From an uncultured Planctomycetia bacterium (GTDB lineage: Bacteria > Omnitrophota > Gorgyraeia > Gorgyraeales > Gorgyraeaceae), in NCBI GenBank assembly GCA_964415355.1, contig CAYPYS010000003.1, positions 4,156 to 68,155 of the forward strand: a DNA stretch of 64,000 bases, read 5' to 3'. The stretch's first letter is position 1. Each line of letters starts with the position of its first letter. The position numbers and the translations under genes were made by a program. Positions 1,274 to 63,852 of the stretch are shown piece by piece. Below the pieces are notes generated by a model. It ran no database searches and had not been told where the DNA came from. It was given only the letters and a program-made list of their open reading frames with translations.

Positions 1274-1308
1274 AACTTTATATTTCAACAACGTTAAAGT
1301 GTAAACTT
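1274..1308. repeat. 35-bp imperfect palindromic intergenic repeat, copy 1 (form A, 2 substitutions)
   Basis: aactttatatttcaacaacgttaaagtgtaaactt sits between the dnaX start and tRNA-Ser. Confidence 0.9.
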
Positions 1309-1310
1309 AC

Positions 1311-1406
1311 TGGCGGAGAGGGAGGGATTTGAACCCTCGGTACGGACTTTCATCCGTACAACGGTTTAGCAAACCGCCGCATTAAGCCGGACTATGCAAC
1401 CTCTCC
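1311..1406 (-). tRNA. tRNA-Ser (anticodon GCU), class II with long variable arm, CCA encoded
   Basis: The reverse complement folds by hand as GGAGAGG-TT-GCAT/ATGC D-arm, anticodon stem GCGGT/ACCGT with loop TTGCTAA, 7-bp variable-arm helix GTACGGA/TCCGTAC, T-arm GAGGG-TTCAAAT-CCCTC, acceptor CCTCTCC, G, CCA. Confidence 0.8.
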
Positions 1407-1852
1407 CGCTTCTTTCTAAAAAATCCCTTTAATAAAGCAGCTGCCTCGTGCTCTAAGATTCCTTTTCTGACTTCTATTCTATGATTCAATTTCTTGTGAT
1501 TGACCAGATTTGTGACTGAACCACAGGCGCCGCTCTTGGGGTCATCTGCAGCGTAAAAAAGCTCTTTTATGCGCGCTAAAACCATTGCGCCAGAACACAT
1601 GCTGCAAGGTTCAATTGTAACATACATGACACAATCTATCAATCTTTCATTTTGAAGTTGACTGGCTGCTTGGGTAATAGCTATCATCTCTGCATGAGCA
1701 GTCGGATCTTTTAGCATCTTTATCTGGTTATGCGCACGGCCTATTATAGTACCTTTATGCACTATAACCGCTCCCACAGGCACCTCGTTTCTATCAAAGG
1801 CCTTTCTTGCCTCCAACAACGCCTGTTTCATATAAAATTCATGATTTTTCAT
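1382..1852 (-). CDS. tadA: tRNA-specific adenosine deaminase
   Basis: Cytidine/deoxycytidylate deaminase zinc motifs HAEMIAI...PCSMCSGAM are present. The 3' end (1382–1406) overlaps the tRNA-Ser gene. Confidence 0.8.
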   Translation of the reverse strand: MKNHEFYMKQALLEARKAFDRNEVPVGAVIVHKGTIIGRAHNQIKMLKDPTAHAEMIAITQAASQLQNERLIDCVMYVTIEPCSMCSGAMVLARIKELFYAADDPKSGACGSVTNLVNHKKLNHRIEVRKGILEHEAAALLKGFFRKKRERLHSPA

Positions 1853-3641: not shown

Positions 3642-3648
3642 TGAAAAC

Positions 3649-3722: not shown

Positions 3723-3740
3723 TTGGTCTTTTTAAAGCTT

Positions 3741-3775
3741 AACTTTACATTTCAACAACGTTAAAGTGTAAAGTT
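3741..3775. repeat. 35-bp palindromic intergenic repeat, copy 2 (form A)
   Basis: Exact match to the consensus aactttacatttcaacaacgttaaagtgtaaagtt. Confidence 0.95.
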
Positions 3776-3779
3776 AAGT

Positions 3780-4121
3780 CTATTGCATCTCGTTTTCGAT
3801 GTACATTTTCAGGCGTTTTTGGTCGCGCGGCTCAATATAGGTAAACGCAACACCTGCTTCAAAGGACTTTGCGTGTTCCGCGCCTACTCTTTTTATCCAG
3901 ACGACTTCGCCTCTTCCGAAGATAGGCATCGTATCAGAAGGAAAATATATCTGCACCTCGAGGATCGTGCCTTTTACAAGCCTTTCGTAGACATTAAAGC
4001 TCACGCCGCCTTCGCTTATATCCTTGCCGACTATCTGGTCACCTGTATGCGGCTCTTCCAGAGTCTTGTAACGAATTATTATAGGCCAAGCGATCCTTAC
4101 AAATTTTCTCTTCTCTTCCAT
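3780..4121 (-). CDS. PilZ domain protein (putative c-di-GMP receptor)
   Basis: Carries the RxxxR motif (RKFVR) and the D-x-S-x-G-G motif (DISEGG) diagnostic of PilZ. Confidence 0.6.
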   Translation of the reverse strand: MEEKRKFVRIAWPIIIRYKTLEEPHTGDQIVGKDISEGGVSFNVYERLVKGTILEVQIYFPSDTMPIFGRGEVVWIKRVGAEHAKSFEAGVAFTYIEPRDQKRLKMYIENEMQ

Positions 4122-7907: not shown

Positions 7908-7923
7908 TTAAACATATCTCCCT

Positions 7924-7958
7924 AACTTTACACTTTAACGTTGTTGAAATGTAAAGTT
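7924..7958. repeat. 35-bp palindromic intergenic repeat, copy 3 (form B = reverse complement of form A)
   Basis: aactttacactttaacgttgttgaaatgtaaagtt. The dxs stop codon lies inside it. Confidence 0.95.
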
Positions 7959-9847
7959 ACGGTTTGTTTTATCTTCTGAGGAGAAAGGCCGTATCTGTCT
8001 AATAAAATATCCCTGTCACCGTGCTCGATAAACTTATCAGGAAGCCCGAGCATCTTAACTCTGGTTTCCTTAGGGATTTTATCGATTATCTCTTCTAAGA
8101 CGTATGCCCCGAATCCTCCCTTAAGTGCACCCTCTTCTATTGTAATCAATTTTTTAGTCTTTGATACGGATTTTAATATTAAATCCAGATCCAAAGGTTT
8201 AATGAACCTCGCGTTTATGACTTCGCAGTCTATGCCTTCAGTCAAAAGAGACGAGGCTACGTCCATTGAAACATGAGACATATAACCTATGCTTACTATA
8301 GTAACATCTTTGCCCTCTTTTAGCACCTCTGATTTTCCTAAAATAATAGGCGTTTTTGTCACGGCTGAAGGAAAATTATAACTTTTACCTCGAGGATATC
8401 TTATGGCAATAGGGCCTTCATTATAAGAAATTGCGAATCTAAGCATGTCTTTTAATTCTGCTTCATCCTTTGGCGCCAGCACCACTATGCCGGGCAGGCT
8501 TATTAGATATGCGATGTCAAACGCGCCGTGATGAGTAGGCCCGTCTTCACCCACGAGGCCAGCCCTGTCAAGCATGAATACTATATTAAGATCCTGTAAA
8601 CACGCGTCGTGTGCTATCTGGTCATAGGCGCGCTGCAGAAAGGTAGAATAAATCGCCACGACCGGTTTCAGGCCTGCCCTCGCTAGACCTGCCGCAAAGC
8701 CCACTGCGTGCTGCTCTGCCATGCCAACATCAAAGAATCTATCCGGAAAGATCTTCGCAAATCTATCGAGGCCCGTGCCTTCTGGCATTGCAGCTGTTAT
8801 GGCAATGACCCTTTTATCTGTCTTTGCGATTTCGATAATCTCTTCGCCGAATACGCTTGTGAAACTAATTTCTGGAGACACAGTCGATGTAACCTGTCCT
8901 TTTTCTTTTTTGGCACATACCTTTTCTCCGGTCGACACGTCAAATGAACTCACGCCGTGGAATTTTTCAGGTATCTTTTCGGCATACTCATAGCCTTTGC
9001 CTTTCTTGGTAACTACATGCAAAAGTACAGGCGCATCCATGTCTACGATGTTTTTCAAAGTGCCGACCAGGGTCTTTATATCATGACCGTCGACAGGCCC
9101 GAAATACCTGAATCCCATTTCCTCAAAAAGCATGCCCGGCACCAGAAGATTCTTAAGTCCTTCTTCCAGGCGCCTAGCGGATCTTATGACCCTGAACCCA
9201 AAACGCGGGACTCGTTTCAGAAGGCCCTCTATGTCGCTTCTTATTTTATTGTAAACCGGCGCGGTCATGATGCTGTTTAGATATCTACTCAGCGCGCCAA
9301 CGCTTTTTGAGATGCTCATCTCGTTGTCGTTGAGAATAACCAATATCTTTTTTCGCAAGTGGCCTCCGTGATTGAGCGCCTCGAAAGCCATGCCCCCTCC
9401 CAATGAAGCATCCCCTATAACCGCGACCACCTTATATGCCTTTTCTTCTAAATCGCGCGCCGCTACCATGCCCAGCGCAGTAGAAATAGAGGTCGAACCA
9501 TGCCCTGTCGTAAAAACATCATATTCGCTTTCATTTTTATTCGGAAAACCACTTATGCCGTCGAGTTTACGCAAGGTATTGAATCTATCTTTCCTGCCGG
9601 TTAACAGTTTATGCGCATATGCCTGGTGGCCGACGTCCCAGATAATCTTATCCTCGGGCGCGTTCAAGCAATAGTGAATCGCTACTATCAGCTCAACCGC
9701 TCCCAGGCTGGACGCCAGATGCCCGCCGGAACAAGACACTGTATCAATGATAGCGCATCTTATTTCATGCGCCAAAAGCGTAAGCTCATCAATGCTGAAT
9801 TTTTTTAAATCCGACAGCCTGGTTATCCTATCTAATAATATACCCAT
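7928..9847 (-). CDS. dxs: 1-deoxy-D-xylulose-5-phosphate synthase
   Basis: TPP-enzyme motifs (GHLASSLGAVEL, GDGxxxxG...N) and a transketolase-like C-terminal domain are present. The last residues (...LHFNNVKV) are translated from the repeat. Confidence 0.9.
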   Translation of the reverse strand: MGILLDRITRLSDLKKFSIDELTLLAHEIRCAIIDTVSCSGGHLASSLGAVELIVAIHYCLNAPEDKIIWDVGHQAYAHKLLTGRKDRFNTLRKLDGISGFPNKNESEYDVFTTGHGSTSISTALGMVAARDLEEKAYKVVAVIGDASLGGGMAFEALNHGGHLRKKILVILNDNEMSISKSVGALSRYLNSIMTAPVYNKIRSDIEGLLKRVPRFGFRVIRSARRLEEGLKNLLVPGMLFEEMGFRYFGPVDGHDIKTLVGTLKNIVDMDAPVLLHVVTKKGKGYEYAEKIPEKFHGVSSFDVSTGEKVCAKKEKGQVTSTVSPEISFTSVFGEEIIEIAKTDKRVIAITAAMPEGTGLDRFAKIFPDRFFDVGMAEQHAVGFAAGLARAGLKPVVAIYSTFLQRAYDQIAHDACLQDLNIVFMLDRAGLVGEDGPTHHGAFDIAYLISLPGIVVLAPKDEAELKDMLRFAISYNEGPIAIRYPRGKSYNFPSAVTKTPIILGKSEVLKEGKDVTIVSIGYMSHVSMDVASSLLTEGIDCEVINARFIKPLDLDLILKSVSKTKKLITIEEGALKGGFGAYVLEEIIDKIPKETRVKMLGLPDKFIEHGDRDILLDRYGLSPQKIKQTVTLHFNNVKV

Positions 9848-9857: not shown

Positions 9858-10670
9858 TCAAGATCTCCTGTTTAAAATAAGGTCTGCTATATCTGAAAGT
9901 ATTTTTGCCTTTTTACCGAATATGTCCAGATGGGCCTTGGCGCGCTCGGTCAAAAGCCTCGCCATCTTTCTTACGTGTTCATCTCCATAAACCCTGACAT
10001 ATCCGTCATTATCTATTAGATCATCCACGAGTTGAAATGTAAAGCCGATGCATTTTCCGAACTCAGAAAGCGCTTTTATCTTTTTTTTATTCGCACCTTT
10101 GAATATGCCGCCGGCCTTTACAGAAGCTTCTATAAGCGAGCCTGTCTTATGGCTGGTTATATAGTCTAGTTCGGATTTTGTCGTTTGTCGTTTGCCGTTC
10201 GCATTTTCTATATCCACGACCTGTCCGCCCACTGTCCCATAAGTCCCTATCGCCTTTGAGATACCTTCTATCGTTTCCAAGCAACCTGCTTCTGCGAGCA
10301 ATTGAAACCCCAGGGTCATAAGCGCATCACCTGTTAATATCGCAATGGCTTCGTTAAATTTTTTATGGCAACTCGGTTTCCCGCGCCTCGAATCGTCATT
10401 GTCCACCGCCGGCAGATCATCATGGACCAAAGTATAGGTATGTATAAGTTCTATCGCGCATGCGACAGGCATAATAGCTTTTGCTTTTCCGCCGCACGCC
10501 TCAAAAGAGGCGATCGTCAATACAGGTCTTATTCTCTTGCCGCCCGGAAACACAGAATACCTCATGGCTTTATGAAGCACCTGCGGTTTTACCTTTACAG
10601 ACGGAAGATATTTATCCAGCGCCTTGTCGATTAATTTCTTCTTCTTCGCAATATACCCTTTGATCTCCAT
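9858..10670 (-). CDS. ispA: Short-chain (E)-polyprenyl diphosphate synthase (FPP/GGPP synthase)
   Basis: FARM motif LVHDDLPAVDNDDSRRG and SARM motif FQLVDDLID. Position is the conserved xseB-ispA-dxs arrangement. Confidence 0.85.
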   Translation of the reverse strand: MEIKGYIAKKKKLIDKALDKYLPSVKVKPQVLHKAMRYSVFPGGKRIRPVLTIASFEACGGKAKAIMPVACAIELIHTYTLVHDDLPAVDNDDSRRGKPSCHKKFNEAIAILTGDALMTLGFQLLAEAGCLETIEGISKAIGTYGTVGGQVVDIENANGKRQTTKSELDYITSHKTGSLIEASVKAGGIFKGANKKKIKALSEFGKCIGFTFQLVDDLIDNDGYVRVYGDEHVRKMARLLTERAKAHLDIFGKKAKILSDIADLILNRRS

Positions 10671-10681
10671 CTCTCTCCCCT

Positions 10682-10716
10682 AACTTTACATTTCAACAAC
10701 GTTAAAGTGTAAAGTT
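10682..10716. repeat. 35-bp palindromic intergenic repeat, copy 4 (form A)
   Basis: Exact consensus; the xseB stop codon is inside the repeat. Confidence 0.95.
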
Positions 10717-10936
10717 ATTCCTCGAAAGTCTCGGTATTAAGCTTGCCGCCTTTTTTGACAAGGATCTCGACCTTACGCTTTGTCTCGTCCAGACGCTTCC
10801 TGCAAAGACGCAAAAGCTTCACACCTTCTTCGTATTTTTTCAATGACTCGCCCAGCGGCATGTCTCCGCTCTCCAAGCTGTCGACAATCTCCTCTAATTT
10901 ACCCATCATCTCTTCGAATTTCAATTCTTTTGACAT
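10715..10936 (-). CDS. xseB: Exodeoxyribonuclease VII small subunit
   Basis: 73-aa coiled-coil protein beginning FEEMMGKLEEIV. Confidence 0.8.
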   Translation of the reverse strand: MSKELKFEEMMGKLEEIVDSLESGDMPLGESLKKYEEGVKLLRLCRKRLDETKRKVEILVKKGGKLNTETFEE

Positions 10937-12086: not shown

Positions 12087-12107
12087 ATCTATCCCAGAGA
12101 CCTGAAT

Positions 12108-12142
12108 AACTTTACATTTCAACAACGTTAAAGTGTAAAGTT
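12108..12142. repeat. 35-bp palindromic intergenic repeat, copy 5 (form A)
   Basis: Exact consensus. Confidence 0.95.
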
Positions 12143-12932
12143 AGAGATAATTCAGGATCTTCTCTCTCACTCTTTCTATGGATGATGCCTTGCCAGTCTC
12201 TTCGTCTATGTCGACCAGCGCCCCCTGCAGTTCAACATCATCCTCTGCCATCTCAAATTTTGCAGGCATACATTTCAAAAAATGCTCTATGATAATATCG
12301 GCCTTGCGGCCTATGACTGAATCCTGCGGGCCTGTCATGCCCAGGTCTGTTATGTACGCGCTCCCAAGAGGCAATATCTTCTCATCAGCTGTCTGCACAT
12401 GCGTATGCGTCCCGAATACTACGCTGACTTTACCGTCGAGAAATCTCCCGATCGCGATCTTCTCGCTCGTTGCTTCCGCATGCATATCCACCAGGATTAT
12501 CCCGGTGTCTTTTGATATCCTATTCACCTCTTCTTCCGCCCTCCTGAAAGGACAGTCGATGCCTTTCATAAAAATTCTCCCAGCGACATTTATAATACCT
12601 ATTTTTTTACCCTTATTCGATTTAAGGACAGTCGAGCCTTTGCCGGGACAACCATTTGGATAATTTGCCGGCCTTAAGATCCTGGCATCTTCGTCCAGCC
12701 TTTCATATATCTCTTTTTTCTTCCAAATATGGTCACCTGCAGTCAGGGCATCGATGCGGCTGTTAAACAGATCATCTACGGTGGCCAAGGTAAGGCCTGA
12801 ACCTCCGGCAATATTCTCGGCATTGGCAATTACAAAATCTATGTCCCTGTCCTTACGAAATTCGGGGACTATTTTTTTTATCGCCTCTCTGCCGGGTTTA
12901 CCGACTATATCGCCTATTAACAGAATTTTCAA
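12141..12932 (-). CDS. ymdB: YmdB-family metallophosphoesterase (2',3'-cyclic-nucleotide phosphodiesterase-like)
   Basis: MKILLIGDIVGKPGR...DFVIANAENIAGG; it follows rny as in Firmicutes. Confidence 0.8.
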   Translation of the reverse strand: MKILLIGDIVGKPGREAIKKIVPEFRKDRDIDFVIANAENIAGGSGLTLATVDDLFNSRIDALTAGDHIWKKKEIYERLDEDARILRPANYPNGCPGKGSTVLKSNKGKKIGIINVAGRIFMKGIDCPFRRAEEEVNRISKDTGIILVDMHAEATSEKIAIGRFLDGKVSVVFGTHTHVQTADEKILPLGSAYITDLGMTGPQDSVIGRKADIIIEHFLKCMPAKFEMAEDDVELQGALVDIDEETGKASSIERVREKILNYL

Positions 12933-12949
12933 TATATTCTCCTCCGCCT

Positions 12950-12984
12950 AACTTTACACTTTAACGTTGTTGAAATGTAAAGTT
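12950..12984. repeat. 35-bp palindromic intergenic repeat, copy 6 (form B)
   Basis: Exact form B. Confidence 0.95.
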
Positions 12985-14563
12985 ATTTGGCGTATTCTAC
13001 GGCGCGGGTCTCTCTTATGACCGTGACCTTTATCTGGCCTGGATATTCCAGGCCTTCTTCGATCTTTTTTCTTATCTCTCTCGCAAGACCTATTGCCTGC
13101 AGGTCGCTTATTTTCTCTGGCTGCAGGATCACTCTTATCTCTCTCCCTGCTTGTATTGCAAATGCCTTATCGACGCCTTTAAACGAATCAGCTATCGATT
13201 CTAATTTCTCAAGACGTTTTATGTAATTCTCCAGAGACTCTCTTCGAGCCCCGGGTCTTGACGCGCTAACTGCGTCAGCAGCCTGCACAAGCACGCCGTA
13301 TACAGACGTTGACTCCTCTTCTTCGTGATGAGATGCTATGGAATTTACGACTACATACGACTCTCCGTATTTTTTAGCTATATCTGCTCCTATCTTTGCA
13401 TGAGGTCCTTCTACTTCGTGAGTCACTGCCTTGCCTATGTCATGCAAAAGACCGATTCTTTTGGCGAGATTGATGTCCAACCCTAATTCTCCTGCCATCG
13501 CGCCCATGATAAGCGAAACTTCCTTCATGTGCTGCAATGCGTTCTGGCCGTAACTGGTCCTGTATTTCAATCTGCCGATAAGCTTGATGATCTCAGGATG
13601 CACGCGCTGCAAGCCCAATTCAAAAACCGTATGTTCACCCTCTTCTTTCAGGCTGCTATCCATTTCCTGTTTTACTTTACTGACGACTTCTTCTATGCGT
13701 CCAGGATGGATCCTTCCGTCCTGCAAAAGTTTTTCCAGACTGACCCTGGCCACTTCGCGCTTTACTGTATCGAAGCTCGAAAGTATAACAGCCTCCGGGG
13801 TATCGTCGATAATTACATCTACTCCGGTCGCTATCTCGAACGCCCTTATGTTCCTGCCTTCTCTTCCTATGATCCTTCCTTTCATCTCGTCATTGGGAAG
13901 CGCCACTACAGAGACAGTCGTATTCGTCACATGCTCTGCGGCACACCTCTGTATGGCTGTAGTGAGCACCTCTTTCGCCTTTTTGTCGGCGGATTCCTTG
14001 GATCTTTCCAATATCTTATTGAACAAGACCTGGGCCTCGCGCTGCGCGTCTTCTTCTATTCTACGGAGGAATAATTTCTTAGCCTCTTCCACGCTAAGTC
14101 CTGATATCCTTTGGAGTTTCTGCTTCTCTTCGTTAAGCAGCCTGGAGAGTTCGCTCTTGCTCTGCTCTATAGCCTTCTCTTTGCCTACCAAAAGAGATTC
14201 TCTTTTCGAGACATCTTTATCCTTTCTCTCCAATATGTCTACCTTTCGTTCTATGTTCTCCTCTTTCTGACCTAACTTTTTTTCAAGATCCGAAAGTTCT
14301 TGACGTCTATTCTTTGTCTCGCGCTCAAAATCCGAACGCATCTTGAACTTAAGGTCCTTTACCTCGAGTTCGAATTCCTTTTTACGATTATCCAATTCCC
14401 TCTTTGACTCTTCAAGGCCCTTCTTGGCCCTTTCTTCTATCTCCTTCAGGTGCTTCTCGGAAAAAAACTTTCTTATGAAATATCCCGCGAAGAACACCAA
14501 GACAAAAACCAACACCTCTATCAGCGATACTATGGTTTTCAAAGTAAAATCCATCTCCAACAC
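12983..14563 (-). CDS. rny: Ribonuclease Y
   Basis: N-terminal TM helix, long coiled coil, KH domain ([15 protein letters not shown]) and HD domain (HDIGK...H). Confidence 0.9.
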
Positions 14564-17505: not shown

Positions 17506-17793
17506 TTATCGCGAAGCCCGAACCCTTATTATATCCTGTTGTTTTCTTATATCTTCAAGGCGCTCTATTATGTCCTGCTGATTTTTTAAAACTTCTTCTA
17601 TTTTCTCTGAGACTATTCGCGAATCATCGCCTCTTGCGAGTTTCTGGCTTTTACCAAAGCCTTTAAGAGTGAGGATCCCCAGAGAAATAGCTCCTACTAT
17701 AAAAAGCGTCAAAGCTGCCTTTCTCGCCATATCCAACCTCTTTCTATATATGCGCTTATTATAACAAATCCCGTTCGCCCAGTCAATACCCAC
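17506..17793 (-). CDS. Hypothetical small membrane/coiled-coil protein
   Basis: ORF with one TM helix; no recognisable motif. The real start may be the internal MARKAAL. Confidence 0.35.
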   Translation of the reverse strand: MGIDWANGICYNKRIYRKRLDMARKAALTLFIVGAISLGILTLKGFGKSQKLARGDDSRIVSEKIEEVLKNQQDIIERLEDIRKQQDIIRVRASR

Positions 17794-17795
17794 CT

Positions 17796-17830
17796 AACTT
17801 TACATTTCAACAACGTTAAAGTGTAAAGTT
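17796..17830. repeat. 35-bp palindromic intergenic repeat, copy 7 (form A)
   Basis: Exact consensus. Confidence 0.95.
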
Positions 17831-17837
17831 AGGCGGG

Positions 17838-19538
17838 TCACTTGCATTTCAGTCTGGCGCAAGACAGAGTATTTAATACGTCTCCTTTCTCTATCCATCC
17901 CCGACGGGCAACAGCTACGCCAAATTTCATAAGCCCCAGCTGCTCTGCTATATGCGCGTCTGTATTTATTGCCAATTTCACACCAAAATCCCTGGCCATA
18001 CGGCAATGTATATCATTTAGATCAAGCCTTTGAGGAAAACTATTGACTTCCAGGGCCGTACCTTCATCTCTTGCCACCTTAAAGATATCTTCGAAATCTA
18101 TTTCGTACTCCTCTCTTGCACCCCACAGCTTCCCAGTGGGATGGGCGATAATCCGGACATATTTATTCTGACACGCCTTTATGATGCGCCTGGTCAATTT
18201 CTCCTTTGGCTGCTTAAAGCCGGAGTGGATGGCACCGATTACAATGTCCATTTCTTTTAATATGTCGTCGGGATAATCCAAATTTCCATCCGAATCAATA
18301 TCCACCTCTGCCCCGTACAAGATATCTATACCTTTATATTTCTTCCTAAGCTGCTCTATTTCCTTTCTTTTCTCTTTAAGTGCATTTTTATCAAGGCCGC
18401 CGGCTATCTTCAAACCCTGAGAATGATCTGTTATAGCGATATACTCATACCCTAATTTCTTTGCCTTAACCACGACCTTTTCTATAGAGCTGCCGCCGTC
18501 AGACCAATTCGAGTGAACATGAAGATCACCTTTTATATCATCTAATTTCACAAGGTCAGGCAAATTGCCTTCTGAGGCAGCCTCGATTTCACCCCTGTCT
18601 TCTCTTAACTCAGGGTCAATATAAAAAAGCCCCAGGGCCTTATATATCTCCTTTTCACTCTTGCCGGCGATCCTCTTCTTATTTTTAAAAAGGCCGTATT
18701 CGTTTAGTTTGAGACCATCTTTTATGGCGAGCTGCCGCAGTCTTATGTTGTGCGCCTTTGAGCCCGTGAAATACATAAGCGCGGATCCATATGAAGCGCT
18801 TTCTATGACCCTTACGTCAACCTGTATCCCGTCATGCGTGATCACACTAGACTTTGTAGGACCTTTCGTAAGCACATCTTTTACCTCGGGCAATTTTATA
18901 AATACATCCATTACTCTTTTGGGCTCCCTGGAAGAAACCAGGATATCAACATCTTTCACCGTATCCCTCATGCGTCTAAGGCTGCCTGCCGGATTTACCT
19001 TAGTCGCTACTTTTGGTTTTTTGAGCTGCGAAATAATAGAGTCAGCGACGTCAACAGCTGTTTTTATGTCCATCCTGTCACGGCCCCTTTTAAAAAGTTC
19101 GATACCGCGTAAAATATTCTCCTCTGTCTTTTCCTTTATGCCGGGAAGTTTTTTGATCCTTCCGGCGTGAGCCATTCTTTCAAGCATCACGACGTCGCGT
19201 ATACCCAGTTTTTCGTATAGTAATTTCGCGGTCTTTGGCCCGACACCTGGTATATCCAGCATATCGAGTAGCCCGGGCGGGATTTCTTTTTTTAAATCTT
19301 CTAAAAATCTAAGGCTGCCCGTGGAAACCAGCTCTTTTATCTTGTCTTCGAGATCCTTACCTACCCCAGGAATACTTGTAAGCCTGTTCTCTTTTACAAA
19401 TACCTCTATGTCTTCCGGGATCGACTCTATGTTCTGCGCTGCCCGTTCATACGCCCGTATCCTGAAGACATTTTCTCCCTTTATCTCCAGGATTTCGGCT
19501 ATCTGCTTAAAGGCATTTGCAATCTCTTGATTTTTCAT
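17838..19538 (-). CDS. polX: DNA polymerase X family protein with C-terminal PHP phosphoesterase domain
   Basis: HhH motifs (IPGVGKD, IPGVGPKTA) with Pol beta-like palm, and a PHP domain HVHSNWSDG...H. Confidence 0.85.
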   Translation of the reverse strand: MKNQEIANAFKQIAEILEIKGENVFRIRAYERAAQNIESIPEDIEVFVKENRLTSIPGVGKDLEDKIKELVSTGSLRFLEDLKKEIPPGLLDMLDIPGVGPKTAKLLYEKLGIRDVVMLERMAHAGRIKKLPGIKEKTEENILRGIELFKRGRDRMDIKTAVDVADSIISQLKKPKVATKVNPAGSLRRMRDTVKDVDILVSSREPKRVMDVFIKLPEVKDVLTKGPTKSSVITHDGIQVDVRVIESASYGSALMYFTGSKAHNIRLRQLAIKDGLKLNEYGLFKNKKRIAGKSEKEIYKALGLFYIDPELREDRGEIEAASEGNLPDLVKLDDIKGDLHVHSNWSDGGSSIEKVVVKAKKLGYEYIAITDHSQGLKIAGGLDKNALKEKRKEIEQLRKKYKGIDILYGAEVDIDSDGNLDYPDDILKEMDIVIGAIHSGFKQPKEKLTRRIIKACQNKYVRIIAHPTGKLWGAREEYEIDFEDIFKVARDEGTALEVNSFPQRLDLNDIHCRMARDFGVKLAINTDAHIAEQLGLMKFGVAVARRGWIEKGDVLNTLSCARLKCK

Positions 19539-19599
19539 AGTAATATTATTTTAGCATAGATTTTTTGCCGCATAAAGGATATAATACCGGACATAGCCT

Positions 19600-19634
19600 A
19601 ACTTTACATTTTAACATTGTTGAAATGTAAAGTT
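19600..19634. repeat. 35-bp palindromic intergenic repeat, copy 8 (form B variant, 2 substitutions)
   Basis: aactttacattttaacattgttgaaatgtaaagtt lies in the divergent polX/ppiD spacer. Confidence 0.9.
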
Positions 19635-19650
19635 AGAGGGGAGATGAGAT

Positions 19651-21219: not shown

Positions 21220-21225
21220 CAATGG

Positions 21226-21270
21226 TAGCTAAGTATACAATTCAACAATGTTAAAATGTATACTTAGCTA
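21226..21270. repeat. Divergent copy (9) of the palindromic repeat with a different but fully complementary 14-bp stem
   Basis: tagctaagtataca-ATTCAACAATGTTAAAA-tgtatacttagcta. The central core matches the consensus, and the stem arms differ from aactttaca/tgtaaagtt but remain perfectly complementary. Confidence 0.8.
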
Positions 21271-21726
21271 CCTGTTCTGGTTCAGAAGAGTCTTTAATTC
21301 TTTCATGAATTGATTTATATCTTTAAACTGCCTGTAAACAGAAGCAAATCTGACATAAGCTACCTCATCCAGATCATACAGAAGCTCCATGATCAATTCA
21401 CCTACCTGGCTCGCGTCTACTTCTTTCTCGAATTTGCTCTGAAGCGTATATTCTATTTTACTCGCAAGCTCTTCAAGCTTTTGCGTACTTATAGGTCTTT
21501 TCTCGCACGCCTTTTTTATTCCGGCCAAGATCTTTTTGCGATCGAATGGTTCCCGCCGGCCATCCTTCTTTATAACCATTAAAGACGCCTCTTCTATATT
21601 TTCATATGTCGTGAAGCGTCTATTGCAATTCAGGCATTCTCTGCGTCTGCGTATCGAGCGACCTTCTTCGGAAGAACGTGAATCGATTACTTTATCTTCG
21701 TCATGACCACAAAATGGACATTTCAT
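21268..21726 (-). CDS. nrdR: Transcriptional repressor NrdR
   Basis: [17 protein letters not shown]...[12 protein letters not shown] zinc ribbon followed by an ATP-cone. Confidence 0.9.
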
Positions 21727-23071: not shown

Positions 23072-23089
23072 CTCCCTCTCCTTAACCCT

Positions 23090-23124
23090 AACTTTACATT
23101 TCAACAACGTTAAAATGTAAAGTT
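23090..23124. repeat. 35-bp palindromic intergenic repeat, copy 10 (form A, 1 substitution)
   Basis: ...gttaaaatgtaaagtt. Confidence 0.95.
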
Positions 23125-23566
23125 AGCGCATCTTGTCTATCTTTTTTATCTGACTGACCCTTCTCCCGTGCCTACTGCCTAATGCGCGGGTCGAAAGCCA
23201 GACATCTGTAATCTGTTTTGCCTTGGCGTCTGACACGATTTTTGCCGCTAAAACTAAAATATTGGTATCGTTATGCTGCCTGCTTGAACGTGCTATGTCA
23301 ATTCTATCGCAGAGCGCTGCGCGCACGCCTTTAGCTTTATTTGCGACCACTGACATGCCAACGCCTGTTTTGCATATAAGTATCCCGCGCGCGAATTTCT
23401 TTCTTCCTACGGCCTTGCTGACATTGTAACCAATGACAGGGTAATCGCAGCTCTCTTCGGAAAATGTACCAAAATCCTTAACCCTATGTCCCTTTTTTCT
23501 CAAAAAGTCCGCTAGACGTTCTTTTAGCTTATATCCTCCGTGATCTGCTCCTATCGCAATTCTCAT
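23123..23566 (-). CDS. rpiB: Ribose-5-phosphate isomerase B
   Basis: MRIAIGADHGGYKLKE is the RpiB/LacAB N-terminus. Confidence 0.85.
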   Translation of the reverse strand: MRIAIGADHGGYKLKERLADFLRKKGHRVKDFGTFSEESCDYPVIGYNVSKAVGRKKFARGILICKTGVGMSVVANKAKGVRAALCDRIDIARSSRQHNDTNILVLAAKIVSDAKAKQITDVWLSTRALGSRHGRRVSQIKKIDKMR

Positions 23567-25064: not shown

Positions 25065-25069
25065 TTCCT

Positions 25070-25104
25070 AACTTTACACTTTAACGTTGTTGAAATGTAA
25101 ACTT
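25070..25104. repeat. 35-bp palindromic intergenic repeat, copy 11 (form B, 1 substitution)
   Basis: ...gaaatgtaaactt. Confidence 0.95.
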
Positions 25105-27397
25105 AGTGTCTGTTAATGGCCTTGTCTCCTATGTCGCTCCTGTATTGCATGCCTTCGAAATCGATTTTCTTTACTGCGTTGTATGCATTTTTTTTAGCGG
25201 ATTTGATGTCATCCCCCATGGCCGTCACGCCCAATACCCTACCGCCACTTGTAAATATTTTTCCATCTTCAAGGATGGTGCCTGCATGAAACACCTCGGC
25301 GTCTTTTAATTTCTTAGCTTCTCCCAGTCCTCGTATTTCTTTATGCTTTTCGTAAAAGCCGGGATATCCTTTAGACGCACAGACAATGCACAAACACGGC
25401 CTGTCATCCCATTTAAGATCCGCTTTATCGAGATTACCGTCTATGCACGCTGTTATCGCATCCACCAGGTCTGATTTTAATCTAGGCAAAATAGCCTGGG
25501 TTTCAGGATCTCCGAATCTTACGTTAAACTCTAAGACCATCGGACCCTTTTTAGTGATCATAATGCCGCCGTATAATACGCCTCTATAGAATTTACCTTC
25601 TTTTGAAAATCCGTAAATAATGGGCCTAAAAACCTTCTCGATGATCTCATCGAATATTTTTCCTGACACGACAGGCGCCGGTGAATAAGCACCCATGCCG
25701 CCCGTATTGCCCGAAACCACTACTCTATTATTTCTCCTTATTACTACGAATCCTGTTGATACTGTAACACATCCTATATTCCCTTTGTAATCAACTAATT
25801 CTATATTGTATTTTCTAATAGATGTCTTATTCTTTTTTTTCATCTCTATTGAATAAACAGGCCTTGCTTTATATTTCTTTTTGTTCAAAGGATTAATCAT
25901 TGTTTTTCTTTTATCGACAGTTATTATTCCAGAACAGCCTAGCTTAACTATCATCTCTTGTATATCGTCGATTAACCTTCGAGAACCACTACAGAATCTC
26001 ATCTTACCCCGATGTATATCTCCATCTCCGAAATTAAAAGCTTTGAGAAATTCTAATAATACTTCTTTTCTTGACTGTTTTATATAATTTGGGATGTATT
26101 TTGAATAAGAAATCCCAAATCTTGATAAATATATAGCCAATTGTGTCGAGTTTATTCTAAATTTATGACTCTTCTCTTCATAAATAAATCTAAAAGGGAG
26201 CTTACTAATAATCTTTTTAATATTATTAAAATTTTTTGATTTTCTCATCTGCGAGATATAAACCCTTTTAGAGCCTTCACCTTTTGTAACATAGCCCTCT
26301 GATAAATAAATAGCGAGAAATTTAGCCCAATTGATAAAATTAATTTTTAATTTCTTAAATTTACGATTAAACTTATAATCATATTCTGGCAAAATAAAAT
26401 ATCTAGGATTTCTCCCTGTCCACGAGCCTGACTGATAGATATAATTTTCTCCCTTGTAATCCCTTGCTTCTACTACATACAATCTCTCTTTTCCTCTCCT
26501 TTGCTGAACTAACATTCTATGATTAGGCGTTACAGTTAAATCTATATTTCTATTTCTGAAATTGATCATATTACCTTTATATCTCATCCAATATTTTTTT
26601 AACGGCTTTTCAAAGAAAATTTTTCTAGAATACGGATCGAATACTGCCACTTCAACTTCTCTCTCTAATTTATTAAACCGCTTCCATCCATTATTGGTTA
26701 ATATTTCAGTATCTTCAGAATAACAATTAGGTCCCTTGTCGCCATCAAAAATCCTCTTGTGGTCCTGCGAAGACACAAGAGGCACTATGTTTCTTCCGTC
26801 GCTAAAAACCAATATAGACGCCTCTTCTCCGTCAAGACACTCCTCTATAATAATCCTCTCCCCTGAAGAGCCAAAGATCTTCTTGACCAGCATAGAGTCT
26901 ATTGCCTCTTCTGCCTCTTCAATGGTTTTTGCCACTATAACGCCCTTGCCAGCTGCAAGCCCATCCGCCTTCACGACTACAGGCGCGCATTTTTCTTTTA
27001 AATATTTTTTTGCATCCTTGGCATCGCTGAAGACCCTGAAATCTGCCGTAGGCACGTTAAACCTCTTCATGGTCTCTTTTGCAAAAATCTTACTCCCCTC
27101 AAGCATTGCAAGTTCTTTAGAAGGTCCAAATACCTTCAGGCCTTCTCTTGAAAATATATCTACTACGCCCTTCACCAGCGGCACCTCAGGCCCTACTAAA
27201 GTCAGGTCAACTTTATTCTGTTTTGCAAAATTCAAGAGGCCATCGATATCGTCTGCTTTTATCGGGACTACCTCTGCGATTTGTTTCATGCCGCCATTTC
27301 CAGGCGCGCAGAATATTTTATCGACCTTCCTGCTCTGCGCAATTTTCCAGACCAGGGCATGCTCTCTGCCGCCCGAGCCGATTACTAAAACTTTCAT
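25103..27397 (-). CDS. purD: Phosphoribosylamine--glycine ligase interrupted by an in-frame intein (764 aa precursor; ~424 aa after splicing)
   Basis: The N-extein ends ...KRIFDGDKGPN and the C-extein starts TGGMGAYSPAPVV, which together restore the conserved PurD motif GPNTGGMGAY. The 340 aa in between are intein-like. Confidence 0.85.
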   Translation of the reverse strand: MKVLVIGSGGREHALVWKIAQSRKVDKIFCAPGNGGMKQIAEVVPIKADDIDGLLNFAKQNKVDLTLVGPEVPLVKGVVDIFSREGLKVFGPSKELAMLEGSKIFAKETMKRFNVPTADFRVFSDAKDAKKYLKEKCAPVVVKADGLAAGKGVIVAKTIEEAEEAIDSMLVKKIFGSSGERIIIEECLDGEEASILVFSDGRNIVPLVSSQDHKRIFDGDKGPNCYSEDTEILTNNGWKRFNKLEREVEVAVFDPYSRKIFFEKPLKKYWMRYKGNMINFRNRNIDLTVTPNHRMLVQQRRGKERLYVVEARDYKGENYIYQSGSWTGRNPRYFILPEYDYKFNRKFKKLKINFINWAKFLAIYLSEGYVTKGEGSKRVYISQMRKSKNFNNIKKIISKLPFRFIYEEKSHKFRINSTQLAIYLSRFGISYSKYIPNYIKQSRKEVLLEFLKAFNFGDGDIHRGKMRFCSGSRRLIDDIQEMIVKLGCSGIITVDKRKTMINPLNKKKYKARPVYSIEMKKKNKTSIRKYNIELVDYKGNIGCVTVSTGFVVIRRNNRVVVSGNTGGMGAYSPAPVVSGKIFDEIIEKVFRPIIYGFSKEGKFYRGVLYGGIMITKKGPMVLEFNVRFGDPETQAILPRLKSDLVDAITACIDGNLDKADLKWDDRPCLCIVCASKGYPGFYEKHKEIRGLGEAKKLKDAEVFHAGTILEDGKIFTSGGRVLGVTAMGDDIKSAKKNAYNAVKKIDFEGMQYRSDIGDKAINRH
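25706..26725 (-). mobile_element. Intein with LAGLIDADG-type homing endonuclease domain inserted in purD (precursor aa 225–564)
   Basis: N-terminal splicing block CYSEDTEIL (Cys1), block B TPNHRML (TxxH), two LAGLIDADG-like blocks (LAIYLSEGYV, FLKAFNFGDGDI), C-terminal ...VVVSGN followed by Thr+1. The intein DNA is visibly more AT-rich than the flanking purD. Confidence 0.75.
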
Positions 27398-29156: not shown

Positions 29157-29165
29157 ATATCGCCT

Positions 29166-29200
29166 AAGTTTACATTTTAACGTTGTTGAAATGTAAAGTT
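29166..29200. repeat. 35-bp palindromic intergenic repeat, copy 12 (form B variant)
   Basis: aagtttacattttaacgttgttgaaatgtaaagtt. Confidence 0.9.
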
Positions 29201-32827: not shown

Positions 32828-32839
32828 TCTTCTCCTTCT

Positions 32840-32874
32840 AACTTTACATTTCAACAACGTTAAAATGTAAAGTT
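32840..32874. repeat. 35-bp palindromic intergenic repeat, copy 13 (form A, 1 substitution)
   Basis: ...gttaaaatgtaaagtt. Confidence 0.95.
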
Positions 32875-32879
32875 ACTTT

Positions 32880-34560: not shown

Positions 34561-34572
34561 GATAATTCATGG

Positions 34573-34633
34573 ATTCCCGCTTTCGCGGGAATGACATGTC
34601 AGAATTTGTTATTCCCGCGCAAATTAGGAATCC
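34573..34633. repeat. Third hairpin of the same family in inverted orientation (attcccgc-TTTC-gcgggaat) plus a decayed fourth copy
   Basis: Together with 34242–34305 these bracket the GIY-YIG ORF. Confidence 0.6.
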
Positions 34634-34734: not shown

Positions 34735-35016
<282 letters not shown>

Positions 35017-35036
35017 ATCTTTAAAGTGTATCGTAT

Positions 35037-35065: not shown

Positions 35066-35083
35066 TGCTTTTATGGCAGGTCT

Positions 35084-35116
35084 AACTTTACACTTTAACG
35101 TTGTTGAAATGTAAAG

Positions 35117-35118
<2 letters not shown>
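35084..35118. repeat. 35-bp palindromic intergenic repeat, copy 14 (form B)
   Basis: Exact form B, between the ftsB stop and the tRNA-fMet promoter. Confidence 0.95.
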
Positions 35119-36699
<1,581 letters not shown>

Positions 36700-60933: not shown

Positions 60934-60961
60934 CTATTCCACAGTAAAACAAGGAGAAAAA

Positions 60962-62587
60962 ATGGCTAATTTAACGATGCGTAGATTCAAGATGTTCCTC
61001 ATGATGCACTGGCTAAAGTTTACGATAATAGCCGTGGTTGTGATACTTTTGATATTAGCTGTATGGGGTCTGTCGTCTCTTGAATCATTCTACCGTCATC
61101 TTACTCTAGCCCAGATGCCTATCACTCTTCTTCTATCAGGTGTACACGCAGGCATATTCGTCTTTATGTACATGGTTTTCCTGAGGGGCGGTTTTACGAA
61201 AATAAAGCAGACTACTATAAAAGGGCAAAATGTAAATGTGCATTGGAATGATGTAATAGGCATAGAAGAAGCAAAGCAAGAGGCGTGGGAAGTCGTACAA
61301 TTGATAAAAGACCGAAAGCGACTTTTGAAGATCGGCGGAAATATCCTTAGAGGTCTTCTGATGGTCGGGCCTCCTGGTTGCGGAAAGACATATCTCGCAA
61401 AAGCAATAGCAACAGAGGCAGGTATTCCATTCATATCAATGTCCGGAAGTGAATTCACCGAAATATTCGTAGGGGTTGGCGCATCGCGAGTGAGAAAGCT
61501 ATTCAAAAAAGCCAGGACACTTGCCTACGGATATGGCGCGTGTATTGTTTTTATAGACGAGCTGGATGCCATAGGAAGAGCGCGCTCATTCAGCTTTATG
61601 GGCGGCGGACAGGAGACAAACTCGACCCAGAACCAGCTCCTGGTAGATATGGACGGGCTCAAGGAAAAAGATTTTGATGTTATAGTCATAGGCGCGACAA
61701 ACGCGGCAGAAGGAGTTTTAGACCAAGCGCTTCTCAGGCCAGGTAGATTTGACAGGAAGATCTATATCGACAGGCCTAGCCTAGAAGGAAGGACCAAAAT
61801 ATTTGAATATTATCTTAAAAAATTAAAGTATGATAAGAGCATGGACATAGGACGCCTGGCAAGAAAGGCAGTATATAAGACACCTGCGGAAATAGACAAT
61901 ATAATAAAAGAAGCGGCCCTGATCTCCACTAGAAACAAAAAAGATACAGTAAGCTACAAAGAAATATCCGAGGCAATGGAACGCATTGACATGGGTATAA
62001 AACACAGACGACAGATGACAAAAGAGGAAAAGGAAATGGTTGCGTTCCACGAAACAGGGCATCTTGTCACAATGTACATATTGCACCCTACTGATGATGT
62101 ATTTAAGGCCTCTATCATCTCTCGCAAAGAAACGCTTGGTGCAGTGTATGCTCAACCAAGAGAAGAATTATATACTCGCAACAAAGAAAGGCTACTGGCA
62201 GATATAAAGGTAAAGCTTGGCGGATACGTGGCAGAAAAAACAAGATTCGGCACCACGAGCGATGGTGTAGCATCTGATTTTAAAGGCGCGATGCAGGTAG
62301 CACACGCCATGGTCTGGAAGGTAGGGATGAGCGACGCTGGATTTGTAGGAGACTACACTATGATACCAGAATCTCAGCTATCTGAAGTGATCAAGGAAAA
62401 GCTCAATAACGAGACAAATAAGATCATAAAGACCTGCCTTAAAGAAGTCGAAGAACTCCTCAAAAAAGAATGGCCGATAGTGGAAAGATTCGTAAAAGAA
62501 CTGCTTGAAAAAGAAGAGCTGGAGTACGACGAAGTAGAGACTATATTCAAAGAATACGGCAAGACTCATATATATAAGTCTGCATGA
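60962..62587 (+). CDS. ftsH: ATP-dependent zinc metalloprotease FtsH-like (AAA+ ATPase with HExxH)
   Basis: TM N-terminus; Walker A GPPGCGKT; Walker B IVFIDELD; second region of homology [22 protein letters not shown]; HETGH zinc motif. Shorter (541 aa) than typical FtsH. Confidence 0.75.
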
Positions 62588-63819
62588 ACGCCCCTCTCTT
62601 AAAAGTCCTATTACCCATTCTACTTTTAATGACACTTGCTTCCTGCGAAGGAGCAACATATTCAAAAGAAAAAGTCGAACGATCCGTAGTGGAACTCTGT
62701 AAAAATGAATATGATCTGGACGTAGAGGCAAAGATCATCGGCTCGACCCTTGGAGTATCCATACCCATAGAAGGACTTGTAGACCCTGAGCTGAAACTCG
62801 ACCAGGAGGCCGGTGAAAAAATAGAGGATGTGGCCCTATCCATACACAGGGTCATAATGAGCACGGACAAACCCTTAAAAATATACACGCTCACGGCAAG
62901 AGACACGAGCGCCATAGGCGCGGAATTTATATTGACGGGTTTTGTTTATGATGTAGTGCGCGTGCGGCTTTTGGATATCTCCAGAGGTGAATACCATAAA
63001 AGGATATTGAGGGATTTCAGGTTTAATTCGGTCGTAACGGGAGAAACAAAGATAAGAGAACTTTTTGATGCCGTAAACGCGCAGTCTCCTTCTATGCAGA
63101 AAATAAGATATCTATTTTATCCGATATTCACTATCGGCAAAGAAGGAAGCCAAAAAATAGAAATAATAGATATAGATGCAAAGGAGATATCAGAGCAGGA
63201 GGCCCTGTTTTACATAAAGACGAGAGAATATTACGAACCTTTGCCCGGCTTTGAAGTTTACAAGGCGATATTCCCTCCTGGATTCCAAAATGAATATTTG
63301 ATACTTACGAATATCTCCTTATTTCCGAATCCCGTAAAAGAAATCGTCTCAAAATATTTCTATTCGGGGACTGAGATAAGGCAGAGAAATGTAGGCGATA
63401 CTTTCGGTCAATATAAAGATACGGGTTACATCGGGATAGACGGTTTGCCTAAAAATGACCTGGATCCTGGCTGGTTTTTGAGCCAACAGATCTCAAGGAG
63501 GGTCAAAATACTCTTTTCTGAAGATAAAAGATTAAAAAAGCGATTCATGGTCCAGGACTCTCAGGGCTCACTAGACAATAAGATATTTCGGTTCACATTC
63601 TCTATCTCTTCTGAAGAACCCACGATGCAGGATGAAGTGGTCATATTCTCGCGCATCCTTAAACTCGCAGGACAGGTAACGCACAGATATGATTTTGAGG
63701 AGTTTGAAGGCATCGAACTGTTAAACACAGCGCCTGGAGGGAAACAACTCTATCTATCAAAAGATGACCTGAAAAAATTCAGACGGAATAGACTAAAAAT
63801 CAAGGACCTCTTACTCTAA
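62584..63819 (+). CDS. Hypothetical lipoprotein
   Basis: Signal peptide with lipobox LLMTLASC; no other motif recognised. Confidence 0.45.
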   Translation: MNAPLLKVLLPILLLMTLASCEGATYSKEKVERSVVELCKNEYDLDVEAKIIGSTLGVSIPIEGLVDPELKLDQEAGEKIEDVALSIHRVIMSTDKPLKIYTLTARDTSAIGAEFILTGFVYDVVRVRLLDISRGEYHKRILRDFRFNSVVTGETKIRELFDAVNAQSPSMQKIRYLFYPIFTIGKEGSQKIEIIDIDAKEISEQEALFYIKTREYYEPLPGFEVYKAIFPPGFQNEYLILTNISLFPNPVKEIVSKYFYSGTEIRQRNVGDTFGQYKDTGYIGIDGLPKNDLDPGWFLSQQISRRVKILFSEDKRLKKRFMVQDSQGSLDNKIFRFTFSISSEEPTMQDEVVIFSRILKLAGQVTHRYDFEEFEGIELLNTAPGGKQLYLSKDDLKKFRRNRLKIKDLLL

Positions 63820-63852
63820 CTTTACATTTCAACAATGTTAAAATGTAAAGTT
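63818..63852. repeat. 35-bp palindromic intergenic repeat, copy 15 (form A variant)
   Basis: aactttacatttcaacaatgttaaaatgtaaagtt; convergent gene ends on both sides. Confidence 0.9.

Follow-up and report, generated by a model that had tools for sequence, protein, structure and literature searches.

Repetitive extragenic palindromic (REP) sequences and REPIN doublets mobilized by REP-associated tyrosine transposases (RAYTs) of the IS200/IS605-type Y1 HUH kind occur in Proteobacteria, Cyanobacteria and some bacteria of the Planctomycetes–Verrucomicrobia–Chlamydiae (PVC) group. REP sequences are imperfect palindromes of 20–40 bp that are present in high copy number, are extragenic, lie mostly past coding regions between co-directional or convergent genes and often provide with their ends the stop codon of the flanking open reading frame (ORF) (PMC3733652). 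They carry an unpaired GTAG or CGTC tag next to a 5–13-bp stem, frequently form dimers and clusters (bacterial interspersed mosaic elements (BIMEs) and REPINs), fall into compensated subfamilies, are vertically inherited and lineage-specific, and cause no target duplication; the gene for the cognate RAYT, a Y1 HUH transposase, is flanked by the repeats (PMC3733652). For the Rickettsia palindromic elements (RPEs) and other palindromes with a CGTC tag, no dedicated transposase is known (PMC3733652). Here, we analyzed a family of 37-bp palindromes in 64,000 nt of contig CAYPYS010000003.1 (hereafter the window), deposited under the name of an uncultured Planctomycetia bacterium. Among close relatives, copies of this palindrome have been gained, lost, flipped in place and interrupted, while their sequence has remained nearly invariant and their stem pairs have covaried. 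We interpret the family as lineage-restricted, non-autonomous REP-like interspersed palindromes copied by a trans-acting, hairpin-recognizing enzyme, a reading to which we assign a probability of roughly 0.55.

Omnitrophota are uncultured, ultra-small bacteria. All named homologs of the YmdB and PurC proteins of the window came from Candidatus Omnitrophota or Omnitrophica, one of them being a PurC of Candidatus Gorgyraea atricola with 85% identity, and judged by these proteins the host belongs to Candidatus Omnitrophota; looking up two window proteins by exact sequence yielded no names. Searching the literature for Omnitrophota together with palindromes brought up nothing relevant, and no report of interspersed repeats in Omnitrophota was found. 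Strains 99.8–100% identical to the window were present in several metagenomes, and a 140-kb JGI contig (Ga0118720_1000061) was 100% identical; the window is also carried by a contig of 172.7 kb. The metagenome-assembled genome (MAG) CAYULJ01 (GCA_964445715.1), also labeled ‘Planctomycetia’, encodes a PurC 95% identical to that of the window. In the comparisons below, W denotes the window, J the lineage of L015 and G that of L086, and the MAG locus is L087. Identity to the window at four-fold degenerate sites was 60–74% in L015 (J), L021, L085 and the MAG, all with conserved synteny, and fell to 47% in L086 (G) and to about 36–41% in L018. From the window, relatives and one metagenome scan, a collection of 113 distinct copies was assembled.

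Results

A palindrome family with strand-symmetric pairing

The half-site ACTTTACAYTTYAAC, allowing up to two mismatches, was found 30 times in the window against 0.57 ± 0.70 (maximum 2) in dinucleotide-preserving shuffles, which establishes as real the repeat family reported in a preliminary description of this DNA. The half-sites pair in inverted orientation 3 nt apart to give 33-bp cores, and with TA on both sides of each core, the unit becomes the 37-bp TA-ACTTTACAYTTYAAC-NNN-GTTRAARTGTAAAGT-TA (family consensus TAACTTTACAYTTYAACNNNGTTRAARTGTAAAGTTA). There are 14 canonical copies and one diverged copy with arms AGTATACA...TGTATACT. Extending the same contig 18.4 kb beyond the window added eight further copies, for a total of 23 in 82.4 kb; no transposase was seen in this extension. 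An exact search with the 33-mer returned seven loci, all of them in MAG CAYULJ01. Rfam 15, in both gathering-score and E-value modes, matched no palindrome copy to a family (a nearby mir-7615 match at E = 0.14 was noise), a search of viral contigs gave no hits, and BLAST of the palindrome found no match in plasmids and only partial, non-significant matches in phages (E 0.2–0.6). Half-sites otherwise always form inverted pairs with 3 nt between them; the single solo half-site in the 64 kb lies within the ispA coding sequence and recurs in L015, L021 and the near-identical strains. We estimate a chance expectation of roughly 0.02 such sites per window; this one may have arisen by chance, and its membership in the family is uncertain.

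Copies are 37–41 bp long, and each is able to form a hairpin whose 17–19-bp stem is closed by a 3-nt loop. The dyad centers on this loop (AAC/GTT or AAT/ATT) and not on AACGTT as first proposed, and the perfect basal stem comprises 10 bp including the flanking TA (TAACTTTACA/TGTAAAGTTA), one more than previously counted. Seven more pairs follow, which in the dominant form carry one G·T and one A·C in either orientation. The earlier division of the copies into forms A and B, each the reverse complement of the other, was exact. Moving outward from the core across the 113 copies, the flanks were complementary in 110 at position 1 (A..T), in 106 at position 2 (101 T..A and 5 C..G), in 61 (54%; T..A or C..G) at position 3 and in 46 (41%; mostly C..G) at position 4, and from position 5 onward the values of 24–36 (21–32%) were background. 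The 37-bp palindrome is often lengthened to CTA...TAG or CTTA...TAAG, and in some copies to 24-nt arms.

The stem is maintained as a paired structure. Among 48 distinct 37-mers, standard pairs filled 94.9% of cells, compared to 23–46% when the partner column was slid; five of the 17 stem pairs had changed on both sides, and the covariation score was reached by 0 of 500 shuffles. Compensated changes replaced C-G by G-C in 14 sequences and T-A by A-T in three, and turned T-A into C-G at two positions and C-G into T-A at one. Folding recovered the hairpin predicted earlier, with energies of −11.5 and −13.2 kcal/mol for 37-mer RNAs (−8 to −9 kcal/mol as DNA), −21 to −22 kcal/mol for RNAs of 41–43-mer variants (−19.9 kcal/mol as DNA, for the L086 variant only) and −31.6 kcal/mol for the RNA of the extended copy after polX; RNA z-scores ranged from −4.8 to −9. 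Neither strand was favored. On the sense strand, 47 G·U and 51 A·C pairs were counted (7 versus 11 in copies with a single imperfection), the loop faced one way or the other relative to transcription in 35 versus 26 copies, and the sense strand was the more stable in 31 and the less stable in 23. Pairing is therefore maintained symmetrically on both strands, with no RNA-level or strand-level signature found, and such symmetry fits a DNA-level process acting through single-stranded DNA (ssDNA) hairpins, cruciforms or conversion between arms. The element also contains stop codons in all three frames of both strands, a property that we rejected as a designed feature and regard as unremarkable: the same is true of 8% of shuffled 37-mers and of 29% of composition-matched random palindromes, and one strand of the L086 variant does not have it.

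Turnover and near-identity of orthologous copies

Orthologous junctions differed among lineages in occupancy, orientation and subfamily (Table 1). Inversion in place was observed at three of eight comparable sites, rny/ymdB, purB/purC and purD/purE. At rny/ymdB the flanking spacer was essentially unchanged; at purB/purC the flanking 9 and 13 nt contained three and four changes, and the 33-nt core was a perfect reverse complement. Orthologous copies differed at about 2 of about 250 positions (~1%), compared to 26–40% at four-fold sites, and by our own calculation a 37-nt copy evolving at the W–J neutral rate would stay unchanged with p ~ 0.69^37 = 1e-6. The preliminary description had read this near-identity as a sign of recent spread, which is hard to reconcile with the occupation of the same junctions across lineages 26–40% apart at four-fold sites. 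Together with a 24-kb cluster that carries no copy (see below), these shared junctions imply that the identity needs ongoing homogenization or selection. In the more distant L018–L020, 19 kb of syntenic DNA contained no copy, and a different palindrome family occurs there.

Whole lineages have switched to their own versions of the element. In the MAG, many copies have the form AGTTTACAC...GTGTAAACT with CTTA...TAAG flanks; a third subfamily, AGTATACA...TGTATACT, is present in the window (copy 9) and in a J-type metagenome. L033, L040, L056 and L084 contain perfect palindromes AAACAACTTTACAYTTTAACAWTGTTAAARTGTAAAGTTGTTT at the junction of pilO with its next gene, at dapA/dapB, at glyQ/glyS and at a glycosyltransferase junction, and three copies in L086 have the apical part GAGGTATTACCTC on an unchanged basal AACAACTTTACATTT/AAATGTAAAGTTGTT. 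In these same five loci (L033, L040, L056, L084 and L086), the flanking TA is replaced by a compensated CA...TG. Because the flanking TA covaries as a base pair in this way, it is not a target duplication. Other palindromes also interrupt the element: foreign palindromes are nested within copies in L021 and L015 and replace the right arm in L087 and L085, and the only long version, L015 9163–9354, is a copy interrupted by unrelated palindromes.

Placement at gene junctions

All 113 distinct copies were intergenic or lay within the last codons of a gene, in agreement with the strictly intergenic or 3′-terminal placement described earlier. Both neighbors could be assigned for 70 copies, of which 61 lie between co-directional, 5 between convergent and 4 between divergent genes. 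Among the 61 co-directional copies, the flanking TA and the first A of the element make up the upstream stop codon in 24, and in 7 more this codon lies inside the element (dxs and a glyQ, for example, continue into it for 9–10 codons), so that the element provides the upstream stop codon in 31; in about 20, the stop codon lies within 15 nt upstream. The downstream flank TA(G/A)G leads directly to the Shine–Dalgarno (SD) sequence, which begins 1–8 nt past the element (5–15 nt in the preliminary description), and the start codon follows at 9–22 nt. We considered and rejected an SD carried by the element itself, as the downstream flanks are ordinary SDs only. Junctions without an element have spacers of about 10–17 nt or overlapping genes. 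With such short spacers filled by the SD, the only harmless insertion point would be the stop codon or the last few codons, and filtering for tolerated sites would explain the placement pattern without targeted insertion.

Along the window, 14 copies occupy the first 35.2 kb, which bears out the reported one copy per 2.5 kb of backbone, and none lies between 35.2 and 63.8 kb. Outside the 36.7–60.9 kb region, 23 of 64 junctions (~36%) were occupied and 64% had no copy; inside it, the count was 0 of 17 (Fisher p = 0.002). The corresponding ~24-kb cluster is missing between an FtsH-like gene and eno in L086, and other genes lie upstream of eno in the MAG. This difference in occupancy and the missing cluster in L086 make the distinction between backbone and variable DNA reasonable, and the lack of copies in the variable cluster indicates that the family has not colonized this DNA.

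Copies and neighboring features in the window

The copies are listed in Table 1 with the other features of the window. The gene names given earlier were correct (pabB, gltX, dxs, ispA, xseA, ymdB, rny, polX, ppiD, glyA, nrdR, rpiB and purE/D/M/Q/L/C/B), and one placement was not: there is no copy at ispA/dxs, the copies in question lying at xseB/ispA and after dxs.

Table 1 Palindrome copies and other features of the window. Positions are those of the window; (−), minus strand; TA+A, stop codon formed by the flanking TA and the first A of the element. Every junction listed for a numbered copy is filled in the window.
Feature	Position	Core	Form or sequence	Context in the window	Same site in relatives
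Copy 1	1273..1309	starts 1275	Form A; AAC loop on + strand; hybrid ACTTT...AAACT ends	3 nt past tRNA-Ser 3′ end; dnaX-like start codon 12 nt away	
Copy 2	3740..3776	starts 3742	Form A	Begins 5 nt past PilZ-gene stop; ends ~19 nt ahead of tRNA-Gln	
Copy 3	7923..7959	starts 7925	Form B	dxs extends 9 codons inside (TLHFNNVKV, then stop), stop = TAA in TGTAAAGT; ferredoxin-like ORF start codon 9 nt away	~160 bp of other palindromes inserted in J
Copy 4	10681..10717	starts 10683	Form A	xseB/ispA; xseB stop = TA+A	Identical in J (L015); 2 differences in L021
Copy 5	12107..12143	starts 12109	Form A	ymdB/xseA; ymdB stop = TA+A	Empty in L021, L015
Copy 6	12949..12985	starts 12951	Form B	rny/ymdB; rny stop = TA+A	Exact inverse in J (L015); other subfamily with nested palindrome in L021
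Copy 7	17788..17838	17797–17829	Form A; flanks lengthen palindrome to 24-nt arms	After polX	Identical copy in J
Copy 8	19599..19635	starts 19601	Form B; ATT loop	Divergent polX/ppiD spacer	
Copy 9	21224..21272	21232–21264	Diverged subfamily AGTATACA...TGTATACT; compensated stem changes; flanks lengthen palindrome to 24-nt arms	Convergent ppiD/nrdR junction	
Copy 10	23089..23125	starts 23091	Form A	rpiB/glyA; rpiB stop = TA+A	
Copy 11	25069..25105	starts 25071	Form B; hybrid ends	purD/purE; purD stop = TA+A	Inverse in L085 (1 change); variant family in G (L086)
Copy 12	29165..29201	starts 29167	Form B; hybrid ends	purL/purQ; purL stop = TA+A	Left arm alone kept in MAG (L087) and L085, joined to unrelated palindromes
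Copy 13	32839..32875	starts 32841	Form A	purB/purC junction	Exact inverse in MAG (L087); empty in L085 (tatatag-GGGGAGAGGG-atg)
Copy 14	35083..35119	starts 35085	Form B	After divIC-like gene, stop = TA+A; directly upstream of 12/12 sigma-70 match preceding intron-containing tRNA-fMet gene	Same orientation, 1 change in MAG; empty in G
Copy 15	63817..63853	starts 63819	Form A; AAT loop	End of plus-strand 411-aa gene, stop = TA+A; faces convergent formyltransferase gene	
TPP_C/POR junction				Genes overlap	Filled in L015
Solo half-site	10031–10045 (−)		GCTTTACATTTCAAC, 1 mismatch	Within ispA	
Sigma-70 match	17758–17786 (−)		11/12		
Sigma-70 match	35065–35037 (−)		12/12		
tRNA-Met(CAU), initiator type	~34750–35017 (−)			Anticodon loop split by group I intron (RF00028, 70.7 bits)	
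Canonical terminator	34730–34697 (−)		GC stem + U-tract	After tRNA-fMet	
GIY-YIG-like small ORF	34380–34566 (−)		MKRYYVYILASKRNGVLYIG...	Bracketed by repeat GTCATTCCCGCGAAAGCGGGAAT	LAGLIDADG_2 and PDDEXK_5 ORFs at equivalent place in L085, L086
Palindromic repeat	34242–34307, 34573–34622		GTCATTCCCGCGAAAGCGGGAAT		Also in L004, L026, L070, L071
Variable cluster	36700–60855 (~24 kb)			Many paralogous B12-binding and radical-SAM genes, GT2 glycosyltransferase, UbiA prenyltransferase	
PurD ORF	25103–27397 (−)		764 aa	GARS_A domain in two parts with LAGLIDADG_3 match between	424–427 aa
GltX ORF	4097–5389 (−)		430 aa	gltX model matched by residues 4–98 and 102–421	Called in two pieces in strain L089

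The two sigma-70 matches are the best in the first 40 kb, and each lies 10–20 nt downstream of a palindrome copy. These operon-end copies are thus preceded by a stop codon and followed by the next promoter. The intron-split tRNA-Met(CAU) gene was not called by ARAGORN.

Palindromes of other kinds are also present in related Omnitrophota. A second family, TGTTCGAGG-N5-CCTCGAACA, was found at L021 471–517, L025 3079 and L018 1557–1576 and 14521–14564; the L021 copy sits within a member of the first family, and one of the L018 copies lies within the dxs reading frame. Two coding sequences of the window have unusual domain layouts. An intein carrying a homing endonuclease is the likeliest identity of the insert that divides PurD, judging from its domain matches. 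In GltX, about 40 model positions are missing between the two matched stretches, and the protein is apparently shorter than usual.

Many metagenome contigs begin or end inside or beside a copy, as seen at the starts of L015 and L011, in JACKQG01 contigs (L028, L032, L037, L057 and L071) and at L089 8079, and in one scaffold a run of N adjoins a palindrome copy. These ends indicate that the repeat fragments short-read metagenome assemblies of these genomes.

Discussion

Whatever process underlies these data has to put one and the same sequence at many junctions and hold the copies nearly identical despite neutral divergence around them; it must also permit lineage-wide switches and preserve base pairing on the two strands alike. 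Family-wide switches are beyond site-by-site purifying selection acting alone, and near-identity is beyond simple vertical decay. The most economical model is copying of REP-like elements by an enzyme. The miniature mobile element proposed in the preliminary description thus holds in its REP-like form, given the presence/absence differences, inversions, nested palindromes and subfamilies, and not in its Correia- or IS630-like form with TA duplication, since the TA covaries.

In the model we prefer, a DNA-level process recognizing both structure and sequence would copy and homogenize the family. Its likeliest agent would be a trans-acting enzyme of the HUH/Y1 kind that recognizes ssDNA hairpins with the conserved basal stem; the movement of REPs by HUH/Y1 enzymes is a known precedent. 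Gene conversion and template switching between arms would probably add to the homogenization. Template switching between the perfect 10-bp outer repeats, independent of RecA, could invert a copy in place, and rearrangements mediated by inverted repeats are well established. Copies would survive only where harmless, as insertions that damage a gene or an SD would be removed by selection; starting with TA-A and ending with T-TA(G/A), the element could replace a stop codon and leave the next SD intact. As a side effect, each occupied junction would add a hairpin of −11 to −31 kcal/mol to a polycistronic mRNA. Such an intercistronic hairpin probably affects 3′-end stability or decouples cistrons, and we found no evidence that mRNA effects maintain the copies. 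A much less probable reading of the same events dispenses with a dedicated transposase: replication template switching by itself would both spread and invert the palindromes.

Several observations weigh against copying by a REP-type enzyme. Orthologous copies evolve ~40 times more slowly than four-fold sites, which host-level selection would give as well. None of the 17 junctions of the variable cluster is occupied, and strains 99.8–100% identical to the window show no presence/absence differences of copies; both facts argue against very brisk current transposition. No transposase was found, a weak negative given that the tblastn search used approximate IS608 TnpA, E. coli RayT and IS200 queries (Y1/RAYT) against 400 kb of loci, a fraction of the genome (no match better than E = 0.07). 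The architecture also departs from that of REPs: the consensus lacks GTAG and CGTC and has 17 of 17 positions per side paired, and the copies are singletons that form no dimers, BIME clusters or REPIN doublets, the closest pair lying 151 bp apart (L073).

A host function of the hairpin between cistrons, as RNA or as a DNA site, could replace the preferred model or operate alongside it and would likewise account for the strong conservation. Host selection is invoked by two further explanations. In the first, which we consider improbable but the most credible of the alternatives, the copies are RNA hairpins that serve as operon punctuation, protecting the upstream cistron against 3′ exonucleases, marking processing sites or uncoupling translation, with selection at every junction retaining its copy. 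Their position between a stop codon and the next SD suits such a role, as do hairpin stabilities of −11.5 to −31.6 kcal/mol with strongly negative z-scores, the constancy of junction and sequence across 26–40% four-fold divergence, the operon-end copies just upstream of the two best promoter matches and the presence of an RNase Y gene in the window. Against an RNA element, which the preliminary description had also entertained, no strand-specific signature was detected: the G·U and A·C counts were alike, the stability difference of 31 versus 23 was not significant and orientation was unbiased. Occupancy also varies among close relatives, with most junctions empty, and selection on structure alone would not hold stem sequences identical at hundreds of sites, so that spreading or homogenization would be needed anyway. 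In a second and somewhat more doubtful version, the hairpins would be gene-boundary punctuation maintained by the host through a conserved Omnitrophota protein that recognizes the basal AACTTTACAT/ATGTAAAGTT as DNA or RNA in either orientation; identity at about one-third of junctions would then stem from selection plus gene conversion, with copies and protein co-evolving in each lineage.

We regard as unlikely a role of the copies as cruciforms or DNA-level sites bound by a host protein of nucleoid organization or topology, comparable to BIME/REP with gyrase or IHF, for which they would have been distributed over the chromosome backbone. Conservation of the basal stem AACTTTACAT/ATGTAAAGTT even where the apical part differs between lineages, full strand symmetry and absence from the variable cluster are all compatible with this explanation. 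The compensated changes on both sides of the stem (14 sequences with G-C in place of C-G, along with T-A to A-T and T-A to C-G) nevertheless point to base pairing rather than two independent half-sites, the way in which copies strictly avoid coding sequence and match stop codons resembles tolerated-site filtering, and individual junctions dispense with their copies in close relatives.

An IS630/Tc1-type miniature inverted-repeat transposable element (MITE), Correia- or RUP-like and inserting at TA (or CTAG) with duplication, could account for the TA on both sides of 101 of 113 copies, often as cTA...TAg, and for arms that resemble terminal inverted repeats. We rejected this candidate, and its probability is very low: the flank compensated to CA...TG in five copies and whole lineages is palindromic rather than a direct repeat, filled and empty sites do not differ by the element plus TA, the arms are only 3 nt apart with no internal sequence, the element is far smaller than known MITEs (~50–500 bp), no parent insertion sequence was found and plasmid and phage collections gave no sequence match. 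Least probable of all are unconventional intrinsic terminators or attenuators, suggested by stable hairpins past stop codons, some at operon ends, and rejected because the stem is AT-rich, no copy has a U-tract (as also stated earlier) or scored as terminator-like, TA(G/A)G and then an SD follow downstream, the organism has a canonical terminator after tRNA-fMet, and most copies lie inside essential-gene operons a few nucleotides ahead of the next SD.

Omnitrophota are new territory for interspersed repeats, and this family is unusually regular: one 37-bp hairpin, lacking both tag and duplication, occupies ~36% of backbone junctions and often doubles as the stop codon. Syntenic lineages that differ in occupancy, orientation and subfamily provide a natural experiment in which the spread, flipping and lasting identity of such palindromes can be followed against 26–40% divergence at neutral sites. 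In practice, the repeats break metagenome assemblies and lengthen ORF calls, as in dxs and glyQ.

Comparison with known palindromic repeats

The REP family offers the closest likeness, in that both are short, extragenic, stop-codon-providing palindromes with compensated subfamilies, vertical inheritance, lineage-specific distribution and no target duplication; in addition to the tag and the clustering discussed above, the Omnitrophota stem differs in length (17–19 bp versus 5–13 bp). Correia elements (CREE/NEMIS) of Neisseria and RUP of Streptococcus pneumoniae resemble the family as dense intergenic repeats with inverted-repeat ends and TA flanks that are co-transcribed with their neighbors and able to form RNA hairpins between cistrons. 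Those elements are, however, 100–155 bp long with internal sequence and a TA duplication, whereas the Omnitrophota arms are 3 nt apart and the TA is a stem pair. RPEs are likewise palindromic repeats that tolerate overlap with coding sequence, as dxs and glyQ do here by entering the element for 9–10 codons, but they measure about 100–150 bp and lie in-frame inside genes, whereas the Omnitrophota copies touch only the last codons and have no CGTC tag. Integron attC sites, which are imperfectly palindromic too and likewise follow the 3′ ends of co-directional genes, share ...YAAC/GTTR... motifs; they differ in being 57–141 bp long, with outer RYYYAAC/GTTRRRY, extrahelical bases and a location in cassette arrays next to intI. 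We rejected attC on the basis of the 37-bp unit, the AAC/GTT abutting the loop and the syntenic housekeeping neighbors, and no integrase was present among the called genes of the examined loci.

Three further candidates were set aside. A DNA uptake sequence (DUS/USS), a motif found singly and within coding regions as well, was rejected as the half-sites are paired apart from the one solo copy inside ispA, CRISPR as the copies are not arrayed, and parS, NrdR-box or PurR-box operators as inspection gave no match and the flanking genes are functionally unrelated. Since two defining features of REPs (the tag and the stem and cluster organization) are absent and the MITE test failed, we describe the family as ‘interspersed intergenic palindromic repeats’ rather than assign it to a named one. 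Should an enzyme or host factor acting on these repeats come to light, the REP/RAYT paradigm would gain a new phylum and a new element architecture.

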